Source of the DNA: Escherichia coli
Lineage (GTDB): Bacteria; Pseudomonadota; Gammaproteobacteria; Enterobacterales; Enterobacteriaceae
Assembly: GCF_050320075.1 (NCBI RefSeq)
Contig: NZ_CP190018.1
DNA length: 64,000 nt
Direction: 5' to 3' (one strand)
Below, piece after piece: positions 3,416-59,205 of the stretch; positions within the stretch are counted from its first letter, which is position 1, and every line of letters begins with the position of its first letter. Under the pieces are notes generated by a model. That model saw nothing but the letters and a program-made list of their open reading frames with translations, made no database searches and had not been told where the DNA came from. The position numbers were made by a program, and so were the translations under genes.

Positions 3416-4213
3416 TTAATAAAGTGAGTCGATATTGTCTTTGTTGACCAGTAATACCTTATGGAAACGGATAATTCGCTTATCCATATCTACGTCGGCC
3501 TTACCGAGATTCTCCATTTCTAATCCAGGTTTGATCTCTTCACCCTTCAGCAACGTGCTGGCGACGGCCGCGAGTGCGTAACCTGCAGAGGCCGGATCGT
3601 AAGTAATCCCTTCGGTGATATCACCACTTTTAATCAGTGATGCCGCCTGTGAAGGGATCATCATGCCATAGACTGCGACTTTATTTTTCGCCCGTTTCTC
3701 TTTCACTGCACGTCCCGCGCCAATCGGACCGTTTGAACCAAAGGAGACAACCGCTTTCAAGTCAGGATAGGTTTTCATCAGGTCCAGTGTGGTACGACGT
3801 GAGTCATCCACACTCTCGGCAACCGGCATGCGGCGGGTAACTTCATGCATATCCGGGTAATGCTCTTTCTGGTATTTCACCAGCAAGTCAGCCCATAAGT
3901 TATGCTGCGGCACGGTCAAACTACCCACGTAAATCACATAGCCGCCCTTGCCACCCATGCGTTTCGCCATATGCTCAACATATTCAGCGGCAAATTTTTC
4001 GTTATCAATGATTTCGATATCCCAGTTAGCACTTGGCTGACCGGGGGATTCGTTGGTCAGAACCACAATTCCGGCATCTCGCGCTTTTTTGAATACCGGT
4101 TCCAGCACGTTGGCATCGTTTGGCACAATTGTAATTGCATTAACCTTACGGGCGATTAAATCCTCAATGATTTTAACCTGTTGCGGAGCATCAGTACTTG
4201 AAGGCCCCACCTG
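3416..4213 (-). pseudogene. Periplasmic sugar-binding protein (LsrB/RbsB family), C-terminal fragment cut off by IS150
   Basis: The ORF runs right up to the IS150 left end. The translation continues the N-terminal fragment at 5657..5849 once IS150 and one copy of the CCTG duplication are removed (987 nt, 328 aa). The track start is a GTG created at the junction. Confidence 0.8.
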
Positions 4214-4260
4214 TGTACTGCACCCATTTTGTTGGACGATGAAATGGAATAGCCCCTAAT

Positions 4261-4782
4261 ATGTCAAAGCCAAAATACCCTTTTGAAAAGCGCCTTGAAG
4301 TCGTGAATCACTACTTCACAACTGATGATGGTTACAGGATCATCTCGGCACGTTTTGGTGTCCCCCGAACCCAGGTCAGGACATGGGTTGCCCTCTATGA
4401 AAAACATGGAGAAAAAGGTTTAATTCCCAAACCTAAAGGCGTTAGTGCTGATCCAGAGTTGCGTATTAAGGTCGTGAAAGCTGTGATCGAGCAGCACATG
4501 TCCCTTAATCAGGCTGCTGCTCACTTTATGCTTGCTGGTAGTGGTTCTGTAGCCAGGTGGCTGAAGGTCTATGAAGAGCGCGGAGAAGCTGGTTTACGCG
4601 CGCTCAAGATTGGCACCAAAAGAAACATTGCAATATCAGTTGATCCAGAAAAAGCGGCATCAGCATTGGAGCTGTCAAAAGACCGACGCATTGAGGATCT
4701 TGAAAGGCAAGTTCGATTTCTTGAAACGCGGCTTATGTATCTAAAAAAGCTGAAAGCCTTAGCTCATCCCACGAAAAAGTAA
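4261..4782 (+). CDS. insJ: IS150 OrfA (InsJ), HTH DNA-binding transposase subunit, 173 aa
   Basis: Protein MSKPKYPFEKRLEVVNHYFTTDDGYRIISARFGVPRTQVRTWV... is recognised as IS150 InsJ. The A AAA AAG frameshift heptamer lies at 4743-4749 near its 3' end. Confidence 0.9.
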   Translation: MSKPKYPFEKRLEVVNHYFTTDDGYRIISARFGVPRTQVRTWVALYEKHGEKGLIPKPKGVSADPELRIKVVKAVIEQHMSLNQAAAHFMLAGSGSVARWLKVYEERGEAGLRALKIGTKRNIAISVDPEKAASALELSKDRRIEDLERQVRFLETRLMYLKKLKALAHPTKK

Positions 4783-5630
4783 AAGTACTCAACGAGCTAA
4801 GGCAGTTTTATCCTCTTGATGAGCTTCTCAGGGCTGCGGAGATACCGCGCAGTACGTTTTATTACCATCTAAAGGCTCTCAGCAAGCCTGACAAGTATGC
4901 GGACGTTAAAAAGCGTATTGGTGAGATTTATCACGAGAATAGAGGCCGATACGGATACCGTAGGGTAACGCTGTCTCTTCATCGAGAAGGGAAACAGATT
5001 AACCATAAAGCTGTTCAGCGCCTGATGGGAACCCTCTCACTTAAAGCAGCGATTAAGGTCAAGCGATACCGCTCTTACAGAGGAGAGGTAGGGCAAACCG
5101 CCCCTAATGTTCTCCAAAGAGATTTCAAGGCTACGCGGCCAAACGAGAAGTGGGTTACCGATGTTACTGAATTTGTAGTCAATGGGCGCAAGCTGTATTT
5201 GTCTCCAGTAATAGATCTCTTCAACAACGAAGTTATTTCTTACAGCCTTTCGGAAAGACCAGTGATGAACATGGTTGAGAATATGCTCGATCAGGCATTC
5301 AAAAAGCTTAATCCTCACGAGCATCCTGTTCTGCACTCTGACCAGGGATGGCAGTATCGTATGAGAAGATATCAAAATATCCTTAAAGAACATGGTATTA
5401 AACAAAGCATGTCCAGAAAAGGCAATTGTCTGGATAATGCTGTGGTGGAGTGTTTCTTTGGAACCTTAAAGTCGGAGTGTTTTTATCTTGATGAGTTCAG
5501 TAATATAAGCGAACTGAAGGATGCTGTTACGGAATATATTGAATACTACAACAGCAGAAGAATTAGCCTGAAATTAAAAGGTCTGACTCCAATTGAATAT
5601 CGGAATCAGACCTATATGCCTCGTGTTTAA
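4743..5630 (+). CDS. insK: IS150 OrfB (InsK) integrase-core reading frame, made as an OrfAB fusion by -1 frameshift
   Basis: The -1 frame is open from the slippery site to 5630 and reads ...[32 protein letters not shown]...DVTEF...HSDQGWQY...LKSE (DDE motif). The track lists only the ATG-initiated part, 5025..5630. Confidence 0.85.
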
Positions 5631-5656
5631 CTGTCCAACTTTTTGGGGTCAGTACA

Positions 5657-12211: not shown

Positions 12212-13064
12212 AATTCCCTCCGTAGGTTTGGCTCAGCGCACAACCATCGGCCATGCCATACAGCATGTCGCAGCCGGAACTGGAGCCAATATGTTTAATT
12301 TTTTCTATTGCCTGAGTTGCGTTCCCAGGGATGTCATAAATAATGTTATGAATAAAACGATGAATATCTTCCCGGCAGCGTTGTTGTAATGCGGCTTCCA
12401 GCGTTATGGCACTTAATAACGTGGTATTATTTCTGCCGCGTTGCAGACCGAGATAAAATTCCTCTTTGTATTTTTCCGCCGGATGCCCAGGAATAAATAA
12501 AATAAGCGCCAGACCTGTTAAATAATCGTCGGCTGATGGCGTAAGGCCAATCCCTAAGCCCATCATACTGGCGACCGCTGAGGCGATATTTTGTTTATCG
12601 TTTACGGCCTGAATAACTGCCCGTCGTTTAATATGTAATTCTTTATTTAACGCCTGATAAAACGGATTATCGCCGCAATAATTAAACAGGGTTTCATTTT
12701 CCCCCAGGTGCTGATGAATAATGTCATGCCACTGTTGCCAGGCGATAAGGTGAAAATTCACAGCGGTCATTTGCAAGGTTGGGGACAGCCAACGCCGACA
12801 ACGACTCATCTCTATATGAAGATGTTGACCAACCGTAATGCCTTGATCGTCAAACTGAACCTTATCACCATGCCGGAACAGACCATCAAAGTGAGTGAGT
12901 GCCAACCGACAACTGTTTGGCGCATTGTCGTACTCTTCACAAAGCAGCGTCAGCAACTGCTGGCGGGCCGGAAGTGCGATATTTACCGCTCTGGCAAAGA
13001 CCTGTTCAACCTGTCCTTGCCCCCGCTGCGCCAGAAAATCAGCATCCGCAGTTAGCGCCCACAC
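12201..13064 (-). CDS. yahE: DUF2877-family protein (YlbF-like), 287 aa
   Basis: ORF overlaps the yahF start by 11 nt. Length and context match yahE. Confidence 0.65.
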   Translation of the reverse strand: MWALTADADFLAQRGQGQVEQVFARAVNIALPARQQLLTLLCEEYDNAPNSCRLALTHFDGLFRHGDKVQFDDQGITVGQHLHIEMSRCRRWLSPTLQMTAVNFHLIAWQQWHDIIHQHLGENETLFNYCGDNPFYQALNKELHIKRRAVIQAVNDKQNIASAVASMMGLGIGLTPSADDYLTGLALILFIPGHPAEKYKEEFYLGLQRGRNNTTLLSAITLEAALQQRCREDIHRFIHNIIYDIPGNATQAIEKIKHIGSSSGCDMLYGMADGCALSQTYGGNYVS

Positions 13065-13103
13065 ACACCGTCTTTCTGGTGTGTTGATAGCAAGCCTCCC
13101 GGT

Positions 13104-13709
13104 TTATGCACCTGCGGCCATCAGTAACTGCGCAATCTCTTCAAAGCCTCGTTCCCGCGCCAGTTCCAGCGGCGTTTTGCCATATTTATCCGTCATGTGC
13201 GGGCTGGCACCGTGTTCCAGCAATAACTGGACAATCGCCTGCTGTTTAATCCCGCCATCATTAAGCACAATTGCTTCCAGTAGCGGCGTCCAGCCAACAT
13301 GGTTGGTCTGGTTAACGTTAATCTCCGTATGCGCCAAAAGCTCTTTTACAATACTTAAATGGCCTTTTTCACAGGCAGGCGTCAGGCCGACACCGCCAAA
13401 ACGGGTGACGCAATTAAGATCGGGTTTAGCCGGTAAAATAATCCGTAACAGGGTTAAATCGCCGGTCAGGCAGCTAATTAAAAAAGGATTTGAACATATT
13501 TGATCTTGCTTATTAATATCTGCTCCGGCATCAATTAATGCCTGAACGCAAGCATATTGCTGATATAAACTTGCCAGCGTAATTGCCGTTTTCCCCTGAC
13601 GATCGCAGGTATTAATATCGACACCCAGCGCAAGGCAGGTTTTTACTTTATCGATATCACCCTGTTGCGCAGCCAATAAATAGTCGGCAGGTAGATTTTT
13701 TATAGTCAT
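13104..13709 (-). CDS. yahD: Ankyrin-repeat protein, 201 aa
   Basis: Repeated ankyrin-like units (G.TALH/LA...G....V..LL..GAD.N) are visible in the translation. Length matches YahD. Confidence 0.75.
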   Translation of the reverse strand: MTIKNLPADYLLAAQQGDIDKVKTCLALGVDINTCDRQGKTAITLASLYQQYACVQALIDAGADINKQDQICSNPFLISCLTGDLTLLRIILPAKPDLNCVTRFGGVGLTPACEKGHLSIVKELLAHTEINVNQTNHVGWTPLLEAIVLNDGGIKQQAIVQLLLEHGASPHMTDKYGKTPLELARERGFEEIAQLLMAAGA

Positions 13710-13966
13710 TCACATTCCCCTGGTTTTTGTGGCTGTTTTCGATGAATTGAGAATAGCAACGATAATCTGATAAAAGAACCCGCTTAAATTTAATTCGCCG
13801 TATTTCGCCTTTTTGTTGAATGATGTTCAACAATCTTTTCGCAGTGTGCGGTAGTGCAATATTTGTTTCTTTGACCCGATACCCTTTCACTCAATCAGGT
13901 TTTATTTCTCTATAGTCTGCACATGTAAGAGTAGCTTTCGTCCATGTCTAACCAGAGGGGAACAAG

Positions 13967-14464
13967 ATGAACGGACTCACGGCAACGGGTGTCACCGTCG
14001 GTATTTGTGCAGGGCTTTGGCAGTTAGTGTCTTCACATGTTGGGCTCTCTCAGGGATGGGAATTATTAGGAACCATTGGCTTCGTCGCCTTTTGCAGTTT
14101 TTATGCCGCAGGCGGCGGTAAAACGGGGTTTATCAGAAGCCTGGCGGTTAATTATTCCGGGATGGTGTGGGCGTTTTTCGCCGCGCTGGCTGCCGGTTGG
14201 CTGGCCTCGGTGAGTGGATTGTCCACGTTCTGGGCGAGCGTGATTATGACTGTACCCTTCTCGGCGGTAGTGGTCTGGCAAGGACGTTTCGGTTTATTGT
14301 CTTTTATTCCCGGAGGCTTTCTCGGCATGACGCTATTTTTTGCCAGCGGGATGAACTGGACGGTGACATTACTGGGTTTTCTGGCGGGTAACTGCGTGGG
14401 GATAATTTCAGAATATGGCGGACAAAAATTAAGCGAAGCGACGACTAAACGCGACGGGTATTAA
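13967..14464 (+). CDS. yahC: Inner-membrane protein, 165 aa
   Basis: Highly hydrophobic ORF with several predicted helices, transcribed divergently from yahD. Length matches YahC. Confidence 0.65.
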   Translation: MNGLTATGVTVGICAGLWQLVSSHVGLSQGWELLGTIGFVAFCSFYAAGGGKTGFIRSLAVNYSGMVWAFFAALAAGWLASVSGLSTFWASVIMTVPFSAVVVWQGRFGLLSFIPGGFLGMTLFFASGMNWTVTLLGFLAGNCVGIISEYGGQKLSEATTKRDGY

Positions 14465-14555
14465 AAGTTATTCAAAAATGATTATCTATCTTTAACCGAT
14501 ACCTCTACAGTCATGGCTGGAGAAATTCATAGTAGATAATGGCGGGAATGGTTTA

Positions 14556-15488
14556 ATGAACTCAATTTTTACCGAAGAGAATCTGTTGGCATTTACTACC
14601 GCTGCGCGTTTTGGCAGCTTCAGTAAAGCCGCAGAAGAGTTGGGTTTAACCACTTCCGCCATTAGCTACACCATCAAGCGAATGGAAACAGGGCTGGATG
14701 TGGTGCTGTTCACTCGCAGTACCCGAAGCATTGAGTTAACGGAGTCCGGGCGTTATTTTTTCCGCAAAGCTACCGACCTGCTGAATGATTTTCACGCCAT
14801 CAAACGCAGCATCGATACTATTTCGCAGGGTATAGAAGCACGGGTGCGCATTTGTATTAACCAACTGCTTTATACGCCCAAACACACCGCACGCTTATTA
14901 CAGGTACTGAAAAAGCAGTTTCCTACCTGCCAGATTACCGTCACCACCGAAGTGTATAACGGCGTCTGGGATGCGATTATTAATAATCAGGCGAATATCG
15001 CTATCGGCGCACCCGACACGCTGCTGGACGGTGGCGGCATTGATTACACGGAGATTGGCGCGATTCGCTGGGCTTTTGCCATCGCCCCGGATCACCCGTT
15101 AGCCTTTGTGCCGGAGCCGATCGCCGAAAGCCAACTGCGTCTCTACCCTAATATCATGGTGGAGGACACCGCACATACGATTAATAAAAAAGTGGGCTGG
15201 TTGCTGCATGGGCAGGAGTCAATTCTGGTGCCAGATTTCAACACCAAATGTCAGTGCCAGATTTTAGGTGAAGGAATTGGTTTTTTGCCGGATTACATGG
15301 TCCGTGAGGCGATGGCGCAATCCCTGCTGGTTACCCGACAAATCCATAATCCGCGCCAGGATTCGCGCATGTTACTGGCGACCCAGCACTCTGCCACCGG
15401 TCAGGTGACGCAGTGGATTAAAAAACAATTTTCGCCAAATGGCATATTAACGGGGATCTATCAGGATTTACTGCATCGGGAGAATTAA
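14556..15488 (+). CDS. yahB: LysR-family transcriptional regulator, 310 aa
   Basis: N-terminal LysR HTH (FTTAARFGSFSKAAEELGLTTSAISYTIKRME) plus a substrate-binding domain. Confidence 0.8.
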   Translation: MNSIFTEENLLAFTTAARFGSFSKAAEELGLTTSAISYTIKRMETGLDVVLFTRSTRSIELTESGRYFFRKATDLLNDFHAIKRSIDTISQGIEARVRICINQLLYTPKHTARLLQVLKKQFPTCQITVTTEVYNGVWDAIINNQANIAIGAPDTLLDGGGIDYTEIGAIRWAFAIAPDHPLAFVPEPIAESQLRLYPNIMVEDTAHTINKKVGWLLHGQESILVPDFNTKCQCQILGEGIGFLPDYMVREAMAQSLLVTRQIHNPRQDSRMLLATQHSATGQVTQWIKKQFSPNGILTGIYQDLLHREN

Positions 15489-15529
15489 TCGCTGCCAACT
15501 TCCCGATGCGCTGTGAATAGCGGTTTACA

Positions 15530-16618
15530 TCAACCACCTGCTTTCATTACCCATTCAGAGATAAATTTATTACCCGGTACTGGCGGAGAGTACAAATAGC
15601 CCTGCAAAAAGTGAACGCCTTTGCCGATCATTAAATCCGCCTGCTCCTGGGTTTCTACCCCTTCCGCCACGATACTCAGACCAGGCTTACGCGCCAGTTC
15701 GACAATATTGTCCACAATATGACCGGATATTTCGTCCACGCTCGCCATTTGCACAAATGACTTATCGATCTTAATAAAATCGACCGGGAACGCCTGCAAG
15801 TAACGATAGGTCGCATAACCCGTACCAAAGTCATCCAGCGCAAAGGTAATGTTGTGCTGATGAAGGCTGTCAAATATCGCTCTGGCTTCTGGCGTTACCG
15901 GAATAGGGTTACGTTCCGTTAGCTCGAGAACCAGTTTGATTTTATCGTTACCTAATTTCTTAACCAGGTTCAGGCATTCTTTTTCAAATCCCGCAGCCAA
16001 AAAACAACCCGCCGAGACGTTGATGCCAATATGGAAATTGTCCGGCAGCAAATGTTTTACCGGCATCAGAATATCCGCAGTCTGTTTCATCAACTGGCGA
16101 GTCATTATGACGATAAGACCAGATGACTCCGCCAGAGGAATAAACTGATCCGGTGGGATAATTCCCGTTTGTGGATGTTCCCAGCGGACAAGCACCTCAC
16201 AGCCCGTCAGTACCCCAGTCTGCGCGCAGAAAACCGGTTGGATCCACGGTTTAAATTCATGGTTTTCCAACGCCAGACTGATGGCTTCAGGCGTGACGAT
16301 ATGGTGATAGTGATTATCATTAATATATTTGTGACTATTATTACCCGTGGCGGATATGATCTCCGGATTGTACTGAAAGAAAATATCCCGCCAGAAAGTA
16401 ATATCGCTCTGAATCCCCAGTTTCTCAAAGAGCTGTTTCTTTTGATGTGAAATGGTCTTTGCACTGCGATTTCTGTACTGTGATATTTCTGTTACAGACA
16501 TTCCCTGCATCAGCAGCTTGAGTAGCAGTCGTTCTTTCTCGGATACGCTACCAGGCAATGACAAATGAACCGTTGTACCGAACTCTTGCAGAAAAACACG
16601 AAAATCACATGAATTCAT
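15530..16618 (-). CDS. pdeL: c-di-GMP phosphodiesterase with N-terminal LuxR-type HTH and C-terminal EAL domain, 362 aa
   Basis: LuxR-type HTH (LLKLLMQGMSVTEISQYRNRSAKTISHQKKQLFEKLG) followed by EAL-domain motifs (ELTER, DDFGTGY). Length matches YahA/PdeL. Confidence 0.85.
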   Translation of the reverse strand: MNSCDFRVFLQEFGTTVHLSLPGSVSEKERLLLKLLMQGMSVTEISQYRNRSAKTISHQKKQLFEKLGIQSDITFWRDIFFQYNPEIISATGNNSHKYINDNHYHHIVTPEAISLALENHEFKPWIQPVFCAQTGVLTGCEVLVRWEHPQTGIIPPDQFIPLAESSGLIVIMTRQLMKQTADILMPVKHLLPDNFHIGINVSAGCFLAAGFEKECLNLVKKLGNDKIKLVLELTERNPIPVTPEARAIFDSLHQHNITFALDDFGTGYATYRYLQAFPVDFIKIDKSFVQMASVDEISGHIVDNIVELARKPGLSIVAEGVETQEQADLMIGKGVHFLQGYLYSPPVPGNKFISEWVMKAGG

Positions 16619-17495
16619 GAACACACCTTTTATCTTTTATCGCTGTTCAGTATGAGTGATTACCTGTGGATTCCTGAGCACACATAAGGGGTAACCATAA
16701 ACATCAGCGATGCCATACGCATAACATCCCACATCACTATCAAAAAGATTATCTTTACCTCTGATGCTCGCTCAAAAACAGTTACGCTAAATACCTTAAA
16801 AAGGTAATCACAAGTCAAACTCAGGAGATAATCACGCAAGAATGCAATATTAAAATTCAGATACTCATTTTTGGTAATAAAGAAGTAGTTGGACTATTTC
16901 AATATTTATAATTTCCCACTACGTATTGACGCCCATTCATGAGTAAAGGCGCATTATATGAATTTAACAATCCAGATCAACTGAAAATACCTCAACCTCA
17001 TAAACACATAGCGTCAACATTCAATGACATAATGAGTAAAGATGTTGGTTATGCATACACGTCATTACTCTATGCCTATCCCTTAACAACCTGCTTTTTA
17101 AGGCTGAATCCATTCAGCAATAGATAGCCAACATTATAACAATGACAATAAAAACAATATTTAAAACAATCAATAAAATATCAGACACAGACAATTAAAC
17201 CTTAAACAACAAACAGTTACATTGATTTTAGTTGATTTGCGCTACGCGTTTCCCATGAATAAAGCGTCATTTCAAATTAGCACCAATATTTACATTAAAT
17301 AAGACTAAGCTTATTGAACATTCACAACAGTCCAAGCGTAGGTTTTGGGCTTCAATAGTTCTTTTCTTTTTTATTATCTGTTGCCTGGCAATCATCAATC
17401 GATACTAAGGGCTTAACTGTACACAGATATAACGTATCAAGAGGTAAGAGAAACCGCGCCATATGCAGACATGGCGCGGTTTTATGCAATAACAA

Positions 17496-19529
17496 TCACG
17501 CGTCCGGGAACATCACGCTATGGCCCGGCGCTTCACGATGGAGATGGATAAAGTTAAGGTGCCGCTCGTACTGATCGAGAATATCGGTGATCACCTGCTC
17601 TTTGCTGTAGTCCATCAGGTCGTTGCCCTGGCTGCCTTCTAACAGGAAAGTTTCCAGCCGGTAGTAGGTCGATTTACCGCTACGTGCGCGGTAGGTAAAG
17701 CCCGGCACCGAATATTGCTGCGGCCAAATCTGATAGACAAAGTTTTGCTCTTCGCCCATATGCACCAACAAATCCAGATGCCCCAACTGTTGTCCCTCTT
17801 CCGGCGGCAGGCTTTTTAGCTCCACGTACGCGCCGCGCAACCGCAGCTCCTGCGCCACTTCTTCCATTGCCGGGTAACAGACCGTCTCCATCATCTGTTT
17901 AGTGTAACGCGTGCCCGGATAATTCATCAGGCGCGAGAGACGTTTTTTCCAGCTCAGGCGATCCTGAAGCCCCAGCGGTCGCGGCGCGGTATCACGGTTG
18001 GCACTTTCACGGCGGTAATCTTCTACCTTCAGAGATTTATACAACCCCGCCATCACGAAGAAAATCACAAAGCTGAACGGCAGCCCCATGATTACCGTGG
18101 TGTTTTGCAGCGCGGATATCCCGTTGGTCATCAGCATGCCGAGCGTCAGCAGGCCAATCGCCACCGACCAGAAGACGCGCAGCCAGCCGGGGGCGTCGCT
18201 GTTGATATCTTTAAGCTGCGAGGTGAAATTCCCCAGCACCAGCGCCCCGGAGTCCGCCGAGGTCACATAAAACAGCAGGCCAGTAATGGTGGCGACGGAG
18301 GCGCTAAAGGTAAACGCCGGATACTGCGCCAGCAGGCTGTAGAAGCCGCGCTCCGGATGGACCATCGCTTCCTCGGCAAATGCCGCGCCGCCGTGGATGA
18401 TTTCATACAGCGCGCTATTGCCGAACACCGAGAGCCATAACAGCGTGAAGGTAAACGGAATAATCAACGTGCCCAGCACGAACTGGCGAATGGTACGCCC
18501 ACGCGAGATACGCGCCAGGAACAGGCCGACAAACGGCGACCATGCCACCCACCATGCCCAGAAGAAGAGCGTCCAGTTATTCATCCACTCAACCGGACGG
18601 TCGAAGGCAAAACTGTTGAGCGTCATGCCCATAAAGCGATTCACATAGTCGCCAACGTTCAGCACCAGCGCATTAAGCAGGAACGAGGTGTCGCCCATAA
18701 ACAGCACGAACAGGATCAACCCCAGCGCCAGCGCAACGTTGAGTTCCGATAACACGCGAATGCCCTTATCGACACCGGAGGTGACAGAGATCGTGGCGAT
18801 GATCACCGACAAGGCGATCAGTGCCGCTTTCGCCGCCATTGAATCGGGAATATCAAACAGTACGCTCAAGCCATAGTTAAGCTGTACCACACCGATACCG
18901 AGCGTAGTGGCAATACCGAAGATGGTGCCGATTACCGCTGCAATATCCACTGAATGACCAATCGGCCCGTTAATCCGTTTACCGAAGATCGGGTACAGCG
19001 CCGAGCGGATGGTGAGCGGCAAATTATAACGATAGCTAAAGTATCCGAGCGCCATGCCCATCAGCGCATACATCGACCAGCCGGTTAAGCCGTAGTGAAA
19101 CAGCGTCCAGACCATCGCCTGACGCGCAGCCTCAATCGTCTGACCCGCGCCTTCCGGCGGCTGCATATACTGCGTTACCGGTTCGGCTACGGAGAAGAAC
19201 ATCAGGTCGATACCGATCCCGGCAGCAAACAGCATCGCCGCCCAACTCAGCAGACTGAATTCCGGTTTGGATTGTTCTGGCCCGAGCTTCACCGAACCAA
19301 AACGCGAACAAGCGATACAGACCACAAAGACAATATAGAGCGTTGCCGCCAGCAGATAGTACCAACCGAAGGTTTTAGAGACCCAGTCCAGCGTGCGTCC
19401 AATCCACAGGGCCGAGAAGTCGCGAAACAGGATCGTTGTCAGGGAAAACAACAAAATCAGTCCGGCGGAAGTGTAAAACACCACCGGATTGATTTTGTCC
19501 TTTTCCCTGCTGTGTGAAAGGTCTGTCAT
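17496..19529 (-). CDS. betT: BCCT-family choline transporter, 677 aa
   Basis: Long polytopic membrane protein with the BCCT tryptophan-rich segment (WTLFFWAWWVAWSPFVG). Divergent from betI. Confidence 0.9.
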   Translation of the reverse strand: MTDLSHSREKDKINPVVFYTSAGLILLFSLTTILFRDFSALWIGRTLDWVSKTFGWYYLLAATLYIVFVVCIACSRFGSVKLGPEQSKPEFSLLSWAAMLFAAGIGIDLMFFSVAEPVTQYMQPPEGAGQTIEAARQAMVWTLFHYGLTGWSMYALMGMALGYFSYRYNLPLTIRSALYPIFGKRINGPIGHSVDIAAVIGTIFGIATTLGIGVVQLNYGLSVLFDIPDSMAAKAALIALSVIIATISVTSGVDKGIRVLSELNVALALGLILFVLFMGDTSFLLNALVLNVGDYVNRFMGMTLNSFAFDRPVEWMNNWTLFFWAWWVAWSPFVGLFLARISRGRTIRQFVLGTLIIPFTFTLLWLSVFGNSALYEIIHGGAAFAEEAMVHPERGFYSLLAQYPAFTFSASVATITGLLFYVTSADSGALVLGNFTSQLKDINSDAPGWLRVFWSVAIGLLTLGMLMTNGISALQNTTVIMGLPFSFVIFFVMAGLYKSLKVEDYRRESANRDTAPRPLGLQDRLSWKKRLSRLMNYPGTRYTKQMMETVCYPAMEEVAQELRLRGAYVELKSLPPEEGQQLGHLDLLVHMGEEQNFVYQIWPQQYSVPGFTYRARSGKSTYYRLETFLLEGSQGNDLMDYSKEQVITDILDQYERHLNFIHLHREAPGHSVMFPDA

Positions 19530-19593
19530 CCAGTATCCCCACTGTTATTGTTACCATTTAAAATCAAATTCGTAACAATTAAGACACATTTTA

Positions 19594-19613
19594 TATTGAA
19601 CGTCCAATCAATA
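19594..19613. promoter_or_regulatory. Candidate BetI operator in the betT / betI divergent promoter region
   Basis: Inverted repeat TATTGA-ACGTCCAA-TCAATA lies in the 128-bp region between the divergent betT and betI starts. Confidence 0.45.
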
Positions 19614-19657
19614 ACCGCTTTAATAGATAAACAACGCTGATGAATGGAGTGGCGAAA

Positions 19658-20245
19658 ATGCCCAAATTGGGGATGCAGTCGATCCGGCGCAGACAACTGA
19701 TCGACGCCACGCTGGAAGCAATAAATGAAGTGGGCATGCACGATGCAACGATCGCGCAGATCGCCCGCCGTGCAGGCGTTTCTACGGGGATCATCAGCCA
19801 CTATTTCAGGGACAAAAATGGTCTGCTGGAAGCAACCATGCGCGATATCACCAGTCAGCTGCGTGACGCGGTTTTGAATCGATTACATGCACTTCCGCAG
19901 GGCAGTGCAGAGCAGCGATTATAGGCGATTGTTGACGGGAATTTCGATGAAACGCAGGTCAGTAATGCTGCGATGAAAGCCTGGTTGGCGTTTTGGGCCA
20001 GCAGTATGCATCAGCCAATGCTTTACCGTTTGCAGCAGGTGAGCAGCCGCCGCTTGTTGTCGAATCTGGTGAGCGAATTTCACCGCGAGTTACCGCGCCA
20101 ACAGGCACAGGAAGCGGGCTACGGCCTTGCCGCGCTGATTGACGGATTATGGCTGCGCGCGGCACTGAGCGGCAAACCGCTGGATAAACCTCTCGCACAC
20201 TCGCTGACCCGTCACTTTATTACTCAGCATTTACCCACCGATTAA
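19658..20245 (+). pseudogene. betI: betI (TetR-family choline-responsive repressor) interrupted by an in-frame TAG at 19922-19924
   Basis: Translation [50 protein letters not shown]...GSAEQRL stops at TAG, then continues in the same frame ([12 protein letters not shown]...[10 protein letters not shown]) to the expected end. The track splits it into 19640..19924 and 19973..20245. Confidence 0.8.
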
Positions 20246-20258
20246 CCGAGGAGACGTG

Positions 20259-21731
20259 ATGTCCCGAATGGCAGAACAGCAGCTTTATATACATGGTGGT
20301 TATACCTCCGCCACCAGCGGTCGCACCTTCGAGACCATTAACCCGGCCAACGGTAACGTGCTGGCGACCGTGCAGGCCGCCGGGCGTGAGGATGTCGATC
20401 GCGCCGTGAAGAGTGCCCAACAGGGGCAAAAAATCTGGGCGGCGATGACCGCTATGGAACGCTCGCGTATTCTGCGTCGGGCCGTTGATATTCTGCGTGA
20501 ACGCAATAACGAACTCGCAAAACTGGAAACCCTCGACACCGGAAAAGCGTATTCGGAAACCTCAACCGTCGATATCGTTACCGGCGCGGACGTGCTCGAG
20601 TACTACGCCGGGCTGATCCCGTCGCTGGAAGGCAGCCAGATCCCATTGCGTGAGACGTCATTTGTCTATACCCGCCGCGAACCGCTGGGCGTAGTGGCAG
20701 GGATTGGCGCATGGAACTACCCGATCCAGATTGCCCTGTGGAAATCCGCCCCGGCGCTGGCGGCAGGCAATGCAATGATCTTCAAACCGAGCGAAGTCAC
20801 CCCGCTTACCGCGTTAAAGCTGGCTGAAATTTACAGCGAAGCGGGCCTGCCGGACGGTGTATTTAACGTGTTGCCGGGCGTGGGCGCGGAGACCGGGCAA
20901 TATCTGACCGATCATCCGGGCATTGCCAAAGTGTCATTTACCGGCGGTGTCGCCAGCGGCAAAAAAGTGATGGCTAACTCGGCAGCTTCCTCCCTGAAAG
21001 AAGTGACCATGGAACTGGGCGGTAAATCGCCGCTGATCGTTTTCGACGATGCAGATCTCGATCTCGCCGCTGATATCGCCATGATGGCGAACTTCTTCAG
21101 CTCCGGTCAGGTGTGTACCAACGGCACCCGCGTCTTCGTTCCGGCGAAATGCAAAGCCGCATTTGAACAAAAGATTCTGGCGCGCGTTGAGCGCATTCGC
21201 GCGGGCGACGTTTTCGATCCGCAAACTAACTTTGGCCCGCTGGTCAGCTTCCCGCATCGCGATAACGTGCTGCGTTACATCGCCAAAGGCAAAGAGGAAG
21301 GCGCGCGCGTACTGTGCGGCGGCGATGTACTGAAAGGCGATGGCTTCGATAACGGCGCATGGGTTGCACCGACCGTGTTCACCGATTGCCGCGACGAAAT
21401 GACCATCGTGCGCGAAGAGATCTTCGGTCCGGTGATGTCGCTTCTCACTTATGAATCTGAGGACGAAGTGATTCGCCGCGCCAATGATACCGACTACGGC
21501 CTGGCGGCGGGCATCGTGACGGCGGACCTGAACCGCGCGCATCGCGTCATTCATCAGCTGGAAGCGGGTATTTGCTGGATCAACACCTGGGGCGAATCCC
21601 CTGCTGAGATGCCCGTTGGCGGCTACAAACACTCCGGCATTGGTCGCGAGAACGGCGTGATGACGCTCCAGAGTTACACCCAGGTGAAGTCCATCCAGGT
21701 TGAGATGGCTAAATTCCAGTCCATATTCTAA
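20259..21731 (+). CDS. betB: Betaine-aldehyde dehydrogenase, 490 aa
   Basis: [32 protein letters not shown]... with aldehyde dehydrogenase motifs (ELGGKSP, catalytic Cys region [13 protein letters not shown]). Confidence 0.9.
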
Positions 21732-21744
21732 CCAGGAGGTTTAT

Positions 21745-23415
21745 TTGCAATTTGACTACATCATTATTGGTGCCGGCTCAGCCGGCAACGTTCTCGCTAC
21801 CCGTCTGACTGAAGATCCGAACACAACCGTGCTGCTGCTTGAAGCAGGCGGCCCGGACTATCGCTTTGACTTCCGCACCCAGATGCCCGCCGCGCTGGCA
21901 TTCCCGCTACAGGGTAAACGCTATAACTGGGCCTATGAGACGGAACCGGAACCGTTTATGAACAACCGTCGCATGGAGTGCGGACGCGGTAAGGGGCTTG
22001 GCGGGTCATCACTGATCAACGGCATGTGTTACATCCGTGGTAACGCGCTGGATCTCGATAACTGGGCGCAAGAACCCGGTCTGGAGAACTGGAGTTATCT
22101 CGACTGCCTGCCCTACTACCGCAAGGCCGAGACTCGCGATGTAGGCGAGAACGACTACCACGGTGGCGATGGCCCGGTGAGCGTCACTACCTCCAAACCC
22201 GGCGTCAATCCGCTGTTTGAAGCGATGATTGAAGCGGGCGTGCAGGCAGGCTACCCGCGCACGGACGATCTCAACGGCTATCAGCAGGAAGGTTTTGGCC
22301 CGATGGATCGCACCGTCACGCCGCATGGCCGTCGCGCCAGCACCGCGCGTGGCTATCTCGATCAGGCCAAATCGCGCCCTAACCTGACCATTCGTACTCA
22401 CGCCATGACCGATCACATCATTTTTGACGGCAAACGCGCGGTGGGCGTCGAGTGGCTGGAAGGCGACAGCACCATTCCAACCCGCGCGACAGCGAATAAA
22501 GAGGTGCTGTTATGTGCAGGTGCGATCGCCTCTCCGCAGATCCTGCAACGTTCCGGCGTGGGTAGCGCTGAACTGCTGGCGGAGTTTGATATTCCGCTGG
22601 TGCATGATTTACCCGGCGTCGGCGAAAATCTTCAGGATCACCTGGAGATGTACCTGCAATATGAGTGCAAAGAACCGGTTTCCCTCTACCCTGCCCTGCA
22701 GTGGTGGAATCAGCCGAAAATCGGTGCGGAGTGGCTGTTTGGCGGCACCGGCGTTGGTGCCAGCAACCACTTTGAAGCAGGCGGATTTATTCGCAGCCGT
22801 GAGGAATTTGCGTGGCCGAATATTCAGTACCATTTCCTGCCAGTGGCGATTAACTATAACGGCTCGAACGCAGTGAAAGAGCACGGCTTCCAGTGCCACG
22901 TCGGATCGATGCGCTCGCCAAGCCGTGGGCATGTGCGGATTAAATCCCGCGACCCGCACCAGCATCCAGCGATTCTGTTTAACTACATGTCGCACGAGCA
23001 GGACTGGCAGGAGTTCCGCGACGCAATTCGCATCACCCGCGAGATCATGCATCAACCGGCGCTGGATCAGTATCGTGGCCGCGAAATCAGCCCCGGTGTC
23101 GAATGCCAGACGGATGAGCAGCTCGATGAGTTCGTGCGTAACCACGCCGAAACCGCCTTCCACCCGTGCGGTACCTGCAAAATGGGTTATGACGAGATGG
23201 CAGTGGTTGACGGCGAAGGCCGCGTACACGGGCTGGAAGGCCTGCGCGTGGTGGATGCGTCAATTATGCCGCAGATTATCACCGGCAATTTGAACGCCAC
23301 GACTATTATGATTGGCGAGAAAATGGCGGATATGATTCGCGGGAAGGATGCGTTGCCGAGGAGCACGGCGGGATATTATGTGGCAAATGGGAGGCCGGTG
23401 AGAGCGAAAAAATGA
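21745..23415 (+). CDS. betA: Choline dehydrogenase (GMC oxidoreductase), 556 aa, TTG start
   Basis: FAD fingerprint [20 protein letters not shown]. An AGGAGG ribosome-binding site sits 7 nt upstream of TTG at 21745. The track's upstream start (21700) lies inside betB. Confidence 0.85.
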
Positions 23416-23625
23416 GTCGTGATGTGAACTGACTCAGGAACCTATCAGATTGAGAGTTACCGTTCTACTATGAGGACCGAATCCTTATATAAAACACTGA
23501 GGTAACTCTCATGCTTCATATCCAGTATTCATGATGCTGGTTTTTTGCTGATATTTAACCCGAACACTCCTGATACAGCCTATTAATTCATTTATCTGCG
23601 GCAGATTTTATTTTCTGGATATATT

Positions 23626-24294
23626 ATGAGTGAACAAATCAAACAGGATATCGATCTGATTGAGATTTTATTTTATCTGAAGAAAAAGATTCGTATTATC
23701 CTTTTTATTATAACTATCTGTATGGCAATGGTGCTGTTGTTTCTGTATATCAATAAAGATAATATAAAAGTGAGTTACAGCCTAAAAATAAACCAGACAA
23801 CACCAGGCATACTTGTTAGCTGTGATAGCAATAATAACTTTGCCTGTCAGACCACAATGACTGAAGATGTTATTCAGCGAATTACTACATTTTTTCAGAC
23901 CAGCCCAGATGTCAAGAACAGAGAAATAAAGCTGGAATGGTCAGGAGATAAGAGAGATTTACCAACTGCTGAAGCGGAAATATCTCGCGTGCAGGCGTCT
24001 ATTATCAAATGGTATGCGTCAGAATATCATAATGGCAGGCAAGTTCTCGATGAGATACAAACACCTTCAGCAATTAACAGTGAGCTTTATACAAAAATGA
24101 TATACCTGACCAGGAACTGGTCATTGTATCCGAACGGTGATGGCTGTGTAACTATAAGCTCACCAGAAATAAAAAATAAATACCCTGCTGCCATTTGCCT
24201 GGCTCTGGGATTTTTTATAAGCATTGTAATTTCTGTAATGTTTTGCCTTGTCAAAAAAATGGTAGATGAATACCAACAAAACTCTGGGCAGTAA
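23626..24294 (+). CDS. ykgH: Membrane protein, 222 aa
   Basis: N-terminal and C-terminal hydrophobic helices. Position between betA and ykgG matches ykgH. Confidence 0.6.
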   Translation: MSEQIKQDIDLIEILFYLKKKIRIILFIITICMAMVLLFLYINKDNIKVSYSLKINQTTPGILVSCDSNNNFACQTTMTEDVIQRITTFFQTSPDVKNREIKLEWSGDKRDLPTAEAEISRVQASIIKWYASEYHNGRQVLDEIQTPSAINSELYTKMIYLTRNWSLYPNGDGCVTISSPEIKNKYPAAICLALGFFISIVISVMFCLVKKMVDEYQQNSGQ

Positions 24295-24536
24295 TAAACA
24301 GCATTCTGACAGAGAGTGCCTGTATAAAACTATAGTGACAATGACCGGGAAGGGAGCCCGTCTTCAGGAATGGATTCCTGTCTTTTTCACTGTAAATATC
24401 CTGGCATTACTAATGCCAGGATATTTACAGAAGAGCAGCATAACCATGACGGAACGGGGTTAAGTCAGGTTGTCCTTAACGCTATTCACAACCTCGTATG
24501 CCGCCTTCAGGTTTATGTCCAGACTTCATATCTCTC

Positions 24537-25232
24537 TCAGCAATCCTCAATAATCAGATACACCGCTTTCACCGGGCCATGAACCCCGACGACTTTGATA
24601 AGCTCAATATCCGCCGTTGAACTAGGGCCGCTAATGATGTTAATGCAGGACGGCATTCGTTCACCGGCCTGCGCTTTCTGATGCAATTTTTCTGCGAGTT
24701 GCGCTACACGCGGCAGGATTGTGCTTTTACGCAGGATAAAAAGAGAAGATTCCGGGAGCAGGCTCAATGAACGCCCGCGCTCGGCGGCGGAAAAAAGAAC
24801 CACGCCTCCCGATTCGGTTAAACCATATTCAGCATACACGACACCCACTTTAGCCTGCTCTGCCTGCGAGATATTCTCGGCACCTTTCGCCGGATCCCAA
24901 ACAACGGCATTGCATTCCTGCTGCAAACGTTCGCTAATCCCTAATTCCTCCAGCCTCGTGTCATCGCTAATCACGACCGACTGATCTCCCAGCTCTTTAC
25001 ACAGTCGTATTGCAGCTTCTGCCGCCTGCGCCTCGCTGGTCAGTTCGCAGCGCGTCAACATAACATCGCTGGCAAACTGGATAAACGCGTCACAGCGCTG
25101 CTGTTGGTTAAGTTCGGTAAGCCGCTCGTTAGCATAGTTGTTAAGCGGCGCATCTTCTGCTTGCGGTTCAAGTCGCAGCGGGCGACCCAGTGCCTGAGCA
25201 ACGTTATTCAAAAATTCGCTCCGATTATCCAT
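24537..25232 (-). CDS. ykgG: LutC-like lactate-utilisation protein, 231 aa
   Basis: Third gene of the ykgEFG operon. Start taken at the internal MDNRSEFL, which gives the expected length and an 8-nt overlap with ykgF. Confidence 0.7.
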   Translation of the reverse strand: MDNRSEFLNNVAQALGRPLRLEPQAEDAPLNNYANERLTELNQQQRCDAFIQFASDVMLTRCELTSEAQAAEAAIRLCKELGDQSVVISDDTRLEELGISERLQQECNAVVWDPAKGAENISQAEQAKVGVVYAEYGLTESGGVVLFSAAERGRSLSLLPESSLFILRKSTILPRVAQLAEKLHQKAQAGERMPSCINIISGPSSTADIELIKVVGVHGPVKAVYLIIEDC

Positions 25233-45985: not shown

Positions 45986-46036
45986 TTCAAAATTCGACGA
46001 ATTAACGATATTTGTCTGATTAATAATCAGACCGGA

Positions 46037-46075
46037 TTAATGTTGGTGTATTTATTACACCAGCATTAATTTTCC
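46037..46075 (+). terminator. Probable rho-independent terminator of ykgM-ykgO
   Basis: 14-bp stem TTAATGTTGGTGTA / TACACCAGCATTAA with one mismatch, loop TTTAT, then TTTTCC. Confidence 0.55.
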
Positions 46076-46391
46076 TGGGGATGTATCTTCCTGTTCATTT
46101 AAAGTCAACTGCCTGACGTTTCTCTCCGAATATTCCATTATATTAATGTTGACTTGTTGACCAGGTGCGCCCTGTATGCTGGCATCAACTCTCTTTTAGA
46201 CTGAACACGCCACTCAGTTTCCTCCCTTTGCGACGCAGCCTGCATTTACACTCAAACGGTTAAGATGATAAATGTGGTAAATCTGTTGGTACTGACATAA
46301 AAACGTTTACGCCACAGGAACGGCCTGATCCACCGGTAACCCCATCGCCGACGTTCGAGTGCCAGTTAGAGTAACGCGCACAGATGACTGA

Positions 46392-55771: not shown

Positions 55772-56461
55772 ATGAGCAACCAAGGCGAATACCCCGAAGA
55801 TAATCGGGTTGGGAAGCACGAGCCGCACGATTTTAGTTTGACCCGTCGCGATCTGATTAAAGTCAGCGCCGCAACGGCGGCGACCGCCGTGGTTTATCCT
55901 CATTCTACGCTTGCGGCAAGCGTTCCGGCAGCTACACCCGCGCCAGAGATAATGCCCCTGACACTTAAGGTGAACGGCAAAACCGAGCAGTTGGACGTTG
56001 ATACCCGAACCACGCTACTGGACGCTTTGCGTGAAAATCTGCATCTGATCGGTACCAAGAAAGGTTGCGATCACGGACAGTGCGGAGCCTGTACCGTGCT
56101 GGTCAATGGTCGAAGGCTTAATGCCTGCCTGACGCTTGCAGTCATGCATCAGGGGGCCGAGATCACCACCATTGAAGGCCTGGGTTCACCAGAGAATCTT
56201 CACCCCATGCAGGCGGCCTTTATCAAGCATGATGGCTTCCAGTGCGGCTACTGCACCTCCGGGCAAATTTGCTCATCAGTAGCGGTGCTAAAAGAGATTC
56301 AGGACGGCATTCCCAGTCACGTCACGGTCGATTTGGTTTCCCCTCCAGAAAGAACGGCCGATGAGATCCGTGAACGTATGAGCGGCAACATCTGTCGCTG
56401 TGGTGCATACGCTAACATCCTTGCCGCCATTGAAGACGCTGCGGGGGAGATAAAATCATGA
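55772..56461 (+). CDS. paoA: Periplasmic aldehyde oxidoreductase 2Fe-2S subunit with Tat signal peptide, 229 aa
   Basis: Twin-arginine motif [19 protein letters not shown]. Two [2Fe-2S] clusters ([11 protein letters not shown]..., [17 protein letters not shown]). Confidence 0.9.
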
Positions 56462-59205
56462 AGGCGTTTACCTATGAACGTGTGAACACCCCGGCCGAGG
56501 CGGCACTTAGCGCTCAGCGCGTACCTGGCGCAAAATTTATCGCTGGCGGGACCAATCTGCTGGACCTGATGAAGCTGGAAATTGAAACGCCAACCCACCT
56601 TATCGATGTGAACGGGCTCGGGCTCGATAAGATTGAAGTGACCGACGCGGGTGGGCTGCGCATCGGCGCACTGGTACGGAACACCGACCTGGCGGCTCAC
56701 GAGCGCGTGCGTCGTGATTACGCGGTACTCTCCCGCGCCCTGCTCGCTGGCGCGTCTGGTCAGTTACGCAATCAGGCAACCACCGCAGGTAATCTGCTCC
56801 AGCGCACGCGCTGCCCCTATTTTTACGACACCAATCAGCCCTGCAATAAGCGCCTGCCCGGGAGCGGCTGCGCGGCACTTGAAGGCTTTAGCCGTCAGCA
56901 CGCGGTGGTAGGCGTAAGCGAAGCCTGCATTGCCACCCATCCGAGCGATATGGCGGTCGCAATGCGGTTGCTGGATGCGGTGGTGGAAACCATCACGCCG
57001 GAGGGAAAGACTCGCAGTATCACACTGGCTGATTTTTATCACCCTCCGGGAAAAACGCCGCACATTGAAACCGCCCTGCTTCCCGGTGAGCTTATCGTTG
57101 CGGTGACGTTACCTCCGCCGCTCGGCGGAAAACATATCTACCGCAAGGTGCGCGATCGCGCCTCCTACGCCTTTGCCCTGGTATCGGTCGCGGCGATTAT
57201 TCAGCCTGACGGCAGCGGGCGCGTCGCGCTGGGCGTACTGGCTGTCATTACCGCCAGTAACGCCGGGGCACTCGGCAAAGGCGACAAAAACACCGCCAGG
57301 CTGTTAGGCGGCCCCACTATTGAACACTATCATCAGGCCATTGCGCTGGTAGTGGCCGAGACCTTCGAACAGGCGCGAGCGGCGGCCTCGCTGGTGCAGG
57401 CGCACTATCGCCGTAATAAAGGAGCTTACTCCCTGGCGGACGAGAAACAGGCCGTCAGTCAGCCGCCGGAAGACACGCCCGATAAAAATGTTGGTGACTT
57501 TGACGGGGCTTTCACCTCCGCTGCGGTGAAGATTGATGCTACCTACACGACCCCGGACCAGAGCCATATGGCGATGGAGCCGCATGCCTCGATGGCCGTC
57601 TGGGATGGAAATAAGCTTACCCTCTGGACCTCAAATCAGATGATTGACTGGTGCCGCACCGATCTGGCAAAAACGCTGAAAGTGCCCGTGGAGAATGTGC
57701 GTATTATCTCCCCGTATATCGGCGGAGGGTTTGGCGGCAAGCTGTTCCTGAGAAGCGATGCGCTGCTGGCGGCCCTCGCCGCCCGTGCGGTGAAACGTCC
57801 GGTTAAAGTGATGCTCCCCCGCCCCACTATTCCCAATAACACCACGCACCGCCCCGCCACCCTTCAGCACTTGCGTATCGGTACTGACCAGAGCGGGAAA
57901 ATCACCGCTATCTCACATGAAAGCTGGTCCGGAAACCTGCCCGGCGGCACGCCGGAAACGGCGGTACAGCAAAGCGAATTTCTTTACGCAGGGGCGAATC
58001 GTCATACCGGCCTGCGGCTCGCCATGCTTGATTTGCCGGAAGGGAACGCCATGCGTGCGCCCGGCGAAGCCCCCGGTCTGATGGCGCTCGAAATCGCGAT
58101 CGATGAACTGGCGGAAAAAGCGGGCATCGATCCCGTCGAGTTTCGCATCCTGAATGACACTCAGGTTGACCCCGCCGATCCGACGCGCCGCTTCTCTCGC
58201 CGTCAGCTTATCGAGTGCTTGCGCACCGGAGCGGATAAATTTGGCTGGAAGCAGCGCAACGCCACACCCGGACAGGTACGCGACGGGGAGTGGCTAGTCG
58301 GCCACGGTGTTGCGGCGGGCTTTCGCAATAATCTGCTGGAAAAATCGGGTGCGTGGGTTCACCTGGAGCAAAACGGCACCGTTACCGTGGAAACGGACAT
58401 GACCGATATTGGCACTGGCAGCTACACCATTCTGGCCCAGACGGCAGCGGAAATGCTTGGCGTACCGCTGGAGCAGGTTGCGGTTCACCTCGGCGATTCC
58501 AGTTTCCCGGTTTCTGCGGGGTCTGGTGGACAATGGGGCGCGAATACCTCCACCTCCGGCGTTTACGCCGCCTGTGTGAAGCTTCGCGAAATGATTGCCT
58601 CGGCAGTCGGGTTTGATCCTGAGCAGTCGCAGTTTGCCGACGGCAAGATTACCAACGGTACCCGAAGCGCCACGCTACATGAGGCCACCGCAGGCGGCAG
58701 ACTGACAGCGGAAGAGAGCATTGAATTCGGAATACTGAGCAAGGAGTACCAGCAATCGACCTTTGCCGGGCATTTTGTGGAGGTCGGCGTGCATAGCGCG
58801 ACGGGAGAAGTTCGGGTCCGGCGTATGCTCGCCGTGTGCGCAGCGGGGCGCATTCTGAATCCGAAAACTGCACGCAGCCAGGTCATTGGCGCGATGACTA
58901 TGGGCATGGGCGCGGCACTGATGGAGGAGCTGGCGGTAGATGACCGTTTGGGCTACTTCGTTAATCACGATATGGCGGGGTATGAAGTGCCGGTTCATGC
59001 GGATATCCCAAAACAGGAGGTGATTTTCCTGGATGATACCGACCCCATCTCCTCCCCGATGAAGGCCAAAGGTGTCGGTGAGCTGGGCCTGTGCGGCGTG
59101 AGCGCGGCTATCGCCAACGCGGTGTATAACGCCACCGGTATTCGGGTACGGGATTATCCCATCACTCTGGATAAGCTGCTCGATAAGCTGCCGGATGTGG
59201 TTTAA
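56458..59205 (+). CDS. paoC: Apparent in-frame fusion of paoB (FAD subunit, truncated C-terminus) to paoC (molybdopterin subunit, truncated N-terminus), 915 aa
   Basis: The ORF starts with a CO-dehydrogenase-type FAD-binding domain ([13 protein letters not shown]...), overlapping the paoA stop. Around residue 250 (...[26 protein letters not shown]...) it passes directly into a molybdopterin-subunit sequence that runs to the end (...[14 protein letters not shown]). Junction is near 57228-57235. Confidence 0.7.

Follow-up and report, generated by a model that had tools for sequence, protein, structure and literature searches.

The bet cluster of the analysed stretch of Escherichia coli DNA (64,000 nt, hereafter the window) is flanked by pdeL and ykgH and comprises the choline transporter gene betT and, divergent from it, the genes betI, betB and betA (Table 1). 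The betI gene has the context expected for this repressor, i.e., it is the first gene of betIBA and is divergent from betT. Its frame occupies positions 19658-20245 of the plus strand and consists of an ATG at 19658 that opens 88 sense codons, a TAG, 106 further sense codons and a TAA at 20243-20245. The TAG, located at 19922-19924, is codon 89 of 195 and the sole interruption of the frame. A first-pass annotation of this DNA had described a single in-frame amber at this very place, and both its coordinates and its codon number proved correct on re-translation. The BetT protein (WP_000131044.1) is the same as that of relatives with an intact betI, and betB possesses its own Shine-Dalgarno site, GAGGAG, 13 nt past the betI stop. 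The betT-betI intergenic region contains an inverted repeat, TATTGA-N8-TCAATA, at 19594-19613, which is taken here as the putative BetI operator after Rkenes et al. (1996), as this work is cited in PMC6790063 and PMC7876524.

Table 1. Features of the bet locus, in window coordinates.
Feature	Position	Strand	Description
betT, choline BCCT transporter	17496..19529	-	677 aa, intact; ORF; RefSeq WP_000131044.1
betT-betI intergenic region, divergent promoters	19530..19657	.	identical to intact-allele relatives
betI codons 1-88, only part expected to be translated	19658..19921	+	HTH (14-59) and linker helix
promoter-like site TCGAAA, 18 nt, TATAAT	19918..19947	-	consensus match only; points toward betT
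amber TAG replacing CAG (Gln89)	19922..19924	+	C>T at 19922
betI codons 90-195 and TAA, untranslated remainder	19925..20245	+	BetI-type C-terminal domain, without further mutations
ORF of 90 aa from Met106	19973..20245	+	ORF list; gene callers report it as a C-terminal fragment in its own right
C-rich, G-poor patch (C/G up to about 2)	20138..20255	+	sliding-window composition; betI tail, just before betB
betB	20259-21731	+	intact; WP_000089106.1, identical to the protein of intact-betI relatives
betA	21745-23415	+	intact; WP_001159140.1, identical to the protein of intact-betI relatives

Outside the bet cluster, RefSeq annotates at 56458-59205 of the window a paoB without its C-terminus and a paoC without its N-terminus, the two overlapping, which suggests an internal deletion fusing or inactivating these periplasmic aldehyde oxidoreductase genes. 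The ykgL gene (46020-46245) is annotated as frameshifted.

The identity of the interrupted gene is clear. With Gln put back at codon 89, the protein of 195 residues exceeds the curated cut-offs of two NCBIfam models, reaching 306.2 bits for NF001978 (cut-off 118) and 265.3 bits for TIGR03384 (cut-off 201.3), and Pfam places a TetR_N domain (PF00440) at residues 14-59 and a BetI-type C-terminal domain (PF13977) at residues 85-192 of this conceptual full-length translation. These limits agree with the previous proposal that the HTH lies upstream of the stop and the ligand-binding and dimerisation core downstream of it: the amber spares the HTH and precedes essentially all of PF13977. The 88-aa product alone is still recognised by NF001978 as a BetI N-terminus, and against TIGR03384 it obtains 118.2 bits, below the cut-off. 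A structure search for BetI returned no close solved structure, the best match being 3e7q (E = 8e-16). Membership of the BetI family requires an uninterrupted frame carrying both domains and this one is broken at codon 89, so that the locus is a betI pseudogene and not a functional family member.

The first-pass annotation had raised the question of whether codon 89 is normally CAG (Gln). This is the case in K-12 MG1655 and in strains 118UI and MS14384, and the reference gene does not end at this point with a separate gene downstream, since betI of K-12 is one gene of 195 codons. The betI genes of the window and of 118UI are one nucleotide apart, the C>T at 19922, and a 741-nt query covering betI and its promoter region found in the intact relatives 1 mismatch in total, again the TAG. 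The intact allele of 118UI and MS14384 (WP_001376735.1) is identical at all other nucleotides of betI and the promoter region, and it is accompanied by the same BetT, BetB and BetA proteins. MS14384, a close relative assigned to ST963 (PMC10024524), differs from the window by 7 SNPs in 23.5 kb, and across positions 12624-25000 of the window the C>T at 19922 is the sole difference. The lack of other changes in betI and its promoter region, together with this small number of SNPs, argues for a recent mutation, and the comparison indicates that the allele derives from a single C>T transition that converted Gln89 into an amber codon. In betI, 63 single-nucleotide changes lead to a stop, 23 of them transitions. 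A Dcm hotspot was discarded, as the mutated C sits in ATTACAGGC and not in CCWGG. A 94-aa ORF beginning at an ATG at 19640 was also considered and set aside; the only sequences that match it exactly belong to two short metagenome contigs ending there with a C at the SNP position, and these are thus uninformative on the amber codon.

The window matches with 100% identity a stretch of the YZLc1-3 chromosome (NZ_CP123240.1) that starts at record position 3,895,582; this E. coli strain was isolated from chicken faeces in Yangzhou, China. In RefSeq, betI of YZLc1-3 is a pseudogene with the note "internal stop", and Ec-U3, isolated from human urine in Burkina Faso, carries the same betI allele with the same flag. 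Among the approximately 5140 betI-carrying complete E. coli genomes, a 91-nt query centred on the TAG matched exactly only in these two strains. With the genome of a different haplotype described below included, the TAG at codon 89 was found in 3 genomes, against 5177 that carry betI; the gene is otherwise conserved with an open frame, and the stop is an exception. The locus has therefore the attributes of a nonsense pseudogene: an orthologue that is intact in nearly all conspecifics, a point difference from it, and a mutation that is present in independent assemblies.

YZLc1-3 and Ec-U3 also share an IS150 copy (window 4216-5654, transposase CDS 4261-5630) that splits the gene of an autoinducer-2-type ABC transporter substrate-binding protein, which is intact in MS14384 (WP_001042105.1). 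Among complete genomes this insertion was found only in these two strains, and 118UI and MS14384 lack it at 4261-5630. Both strains thus form a sub-clade, for which the IS150 insertion provides another marker besides the amber. Ec-U3 contains in addition an IS1A in the pdeL-betT spacer, downstream of betT (1-499 of its retrieved locus, approximately window position 17060), that is absent in YZLc1-3.

In the NCBI, Logan and ENA assemblies, the exact 88-aa product was found on 145 contigs, and the intact BetI allele on at least 1000 contigs of the same collections. The neighbourhood of the window is shared by 22 of the 24 longest contigs with the 88-aa product, and three of the loci retrieved show 100% identity to the window along 5.7-8.3 kb. 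As a control, we searched the same collections for the products that would result from a stop at each of ten other betI codons. Nine of the ten lengths were present, on 3-994 contigs; the three lengths that were inspected (stops at codons 73, 86 and 88) corresponded mostly to contig-end partials on short contigs. Unlike these control truncations, the contigs with the 88-aa product show a size peak at 20-50 kb, which is the signature of one expanded clone. The comparison with the control shows the clonal expansion of Q89amber and has no bearing on selection. The clone marked by Q89amber is small, has spread internationally and lies close to the ST963 strain MS14384.

Many draft and metagenome contigs (nine loci among those retrieved) end inside betI, between codons ~72 and 94, and an 85-aa partial BetI product was alone found on 994 contigs. 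The breaks fall about where the betI haplotypes of E. coli start to diverge (from nt 278). Their probable cause is the assembly of mixed strains, and in databases they can pass for truncated proteins.

The same stop was also found in a different genetic background. The Logan assembly SRR35395840 (locus L008; betI at 4001-4588) encodes the same 88-aa product in a bet locus that is only 96.9% identical to the window. Its betI has the TAG at codon 89 within a K-12-like haplotype with 21 nt differences, and the nearest polymorphic sites flanking codon 89 (nt 54 and nt 278) differ from those of the window. A 91-nt query from this haplotype matched one complete genome, 19AR0254 (NZ_CM132280.1; midstream urine, New Zealand), which agrees with L008 at 100% identity along 8 kb. 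In 19AR0254 (betI at 3782-4369 of the retrieved locus), RefSeq also notes an "internal stop", and ehaA instead of pdeL adjoins betT. This second lineage shares with the window the nucleotide change and the codon, and differs from it in haplotype and in the neighbour of betT. The presence of the same TAG in a different haplotype with different neighbours shows an independent origin, so that Q89amber has arisen at least twice. This recurrence is a mild curiosity that carries little weight: the exact-product look-up finds only stops at codon 89, hence the recurrence is ascertained and not unbiased, there are 63 routes to a stop, and very many E. coli assemblies are public.

True internal disruptions of betI at other points were also observed, namely a stop at codon 86 (SRR14063412), a 72-aa truncation (GCA_900449925.1) and an 87-aa truncation (ERR10749420 and ERR10710712). 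A frameshift near codon 87 is present in SRR9153341. The existence of such disruptions in single isolates indicates that the loss of betI is not unique to Q89amber.

Concerning the consequences of the mutation, translation would end after 88 residues and leave an HTH fragment without the BetI C-terminal domain. In the TetR family, ligand pocket and dimer interface are both provided by this C-terminal domain and, with both missing, no functional repressor dimer would be formed. The 88-aa fragment may display some residual DNA binding and, having only the HTH and the following helix, should be unable to form the dimer that is needed for operator binding. BetI is a repressor of betIBA and of the divergent betT that is relieved by choline (PMC7876524, where Lamark et al., 1996 and Rkenes et al., 1996 are the sources cited). 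Without a repressor dimer, the divergent betT and betIBA promoters would lose their choline-responsive repression, and this loss of choline-dependent repression is, judging from the sequence, the most likely effect of the allele. Expression of the bet genes would become independent of choline and would retain the osmotic induction and the ArcA control to which these genes are reportedly subjected.

The stop could also influence the downstream genes. It would leave 334 untranslated nt ahead of betB, which may expose betBA to partial Rho-dependent polarity; the C-rich patch of the betI tail is a candidate Rho loading site, and the amber could in this way be partly polar on betBA. A restart at Met106 (19973), which is preceded only by a weak AGG 14 nt upstream, is possible but should be inefficient, and its predicted product would lack the DNA-binding domain. 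Public assemblies list the ORF from Met106 as a gene with PF13977. Altogether, we consider it very probable that this betI is a recent inherited loss-of-function allele under which the bet promoters lose choline-responsive repression, polarity on betBA being possible.

This interpretation presupposes that the TAG is real and that it is read as a stop. An error in the sequencing or assembly of this one genome, which the first-pass annotation had contemplated, would be in keeping with a single-base difference from the close relatives. Nevertheless, the complete genomes of three strains (China, Burkina Faso and New Zealand), each sequenced independently, show the same base, and so do drafts in NCBI and assemblies from Logan and ENA. 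Given this agreement between independent assemblies the mutation is real and inherited, and the probability of an artefact is practically nil. The amber could otherwise be functionally silent, a working BetI still being made through a suppressor tRNA or a high natural read-through. Beyond the amber the frame carries no damage, as this would demand, but a very recent mutation explains this equally well. Near-cognate tRNA-Gln(CUG), through basal read-through of UAG, would restore precisely the wild-type Gln89, and a trace of full-length BetI could arise in this manner; however, a TAG found in 3 of the approximately 5140 genomes is no conserved recoding site. With respect to suppressors, the gln tRNA cluster of YZLc1-3 contains four genes whose anticodon positions read ttg, ttg, ctg and ctg (ttg in glnU/W, ctg in glnV/X), i.e., the wild type, which rules out supE and supB in this strain. 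A supE-type query (glnV with CTA) matched 155 records and, among the matches listed (60 of 155), all were K-12 laboratory derivatives. A supF-type query (tyrT with CTA) matched none of 5425 genomes exactly, the tyrT/V supF allele being thus absent from the complete genomes, and the window itself carries no tRNA gene. The suppressors covered by these checks are supE, supB and supF. The supE/supF background suggested by the first-pass annotation is accordingly unlikely, and a functionally silent amber as a whole is very improbable.

A different possibility is that the loss of BetI has been adaptive, by allowing choline-independent uptake and betaine synthesis in hyperosmotic niches such as urine or the poultry gut, with the C>T perhaps creating in addition a promoter for betT. 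The identical nucleotide change occurs in two unrelated haplotypes, but this recurrence is ascertained by a look-up that sees only this codon, and other true internal truncations of betI exist. One of the lineages, found in poultry and in human urine, has expanded to roughly 100 assemblies from several continents, although the success of the clone may have had unrelated causes, in which case the allele hitchhiked. Urine is the source of two of the three complete genomes, yet isolates from urine make up a disproportionate share of the E. coli sequenced. The conservation of intact betT, betB and betA is also compatible with adaptation. As for the promoter, on the minus strand (19923 to 19918) the amber C>T makes a perfect TATAAT out of the wild-type TGTAAT. 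This hexamer faces betT and is preceded, at a distance of 18 nt, by TCGAAA, a -35 match of 4/6. This TATAAT could be a putative new promoter toward betT; nonetheless, promoter-like matches at the threshold of the tool appear at about 0.8 per 950 bp in shuffles of the region, i.e., about once per kb, and we regard it as a curiosity and not as evidence. An adaptive loss is thus unlikely in our view, and we are more doubtful still about Q89amber as a recurrently selected regulatory switch that would abolish BetI, render bet expression choline-independent and place a consensus -10 reading into betT. Such a switch would be of only moderate interest even if true.

The recent loss of function favoured here is an ordinary clone-specific gene loss in a well-known regulator, and the pseudogene status of betI had already been flagged in RefSeq. 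A literature search found no paper on betI nonsense alleles, Q89amber included, and none on YZLc1-3. The finding has little importance beyond strain-level annotation, and the repeated origin of the SNP would gain interest only with a demonstrated effect on fitness. Nevertheless, the clone probably expresses the choline-to-betaine osmoprotection genes without the choline inducer, which could slightly alter its fitness in urine or in the gut. Q89amber is also a convenient SNP marker for the clone, and, for studies of bet regulation, the clone offers a naturally betI-null background in which betT, betB and betA are intact.

A premature stop in a local repressor is a common route to derepression (PMC6790063). 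The null alleles of acrR, envR and ramR, which encode TetR repressors of Enterobacteriaceae, resemble Q89amber in having a premature stop with their targets intact (PMC6790063); they differ in being tied to antibiotic selection on efflux pumps, betI having no known selective agent, and betI is not among the genes listed with premature stops in that survey. The closest reference is BetI of K-12 (b0313, NP_414847.3), which corresponds to the same gene at the same locus with the same 195-codon frame, and whose residues 1-88 are identical in protein sequence to those of the window. The divergent betT/betIBA layout and the intergenic dyad are common to both. The K-12 gene differs from the haplotype of the window at 36 nt, mostly after codon 93, and at codon 89 it has a CAG where the allele of the window has the TAG.
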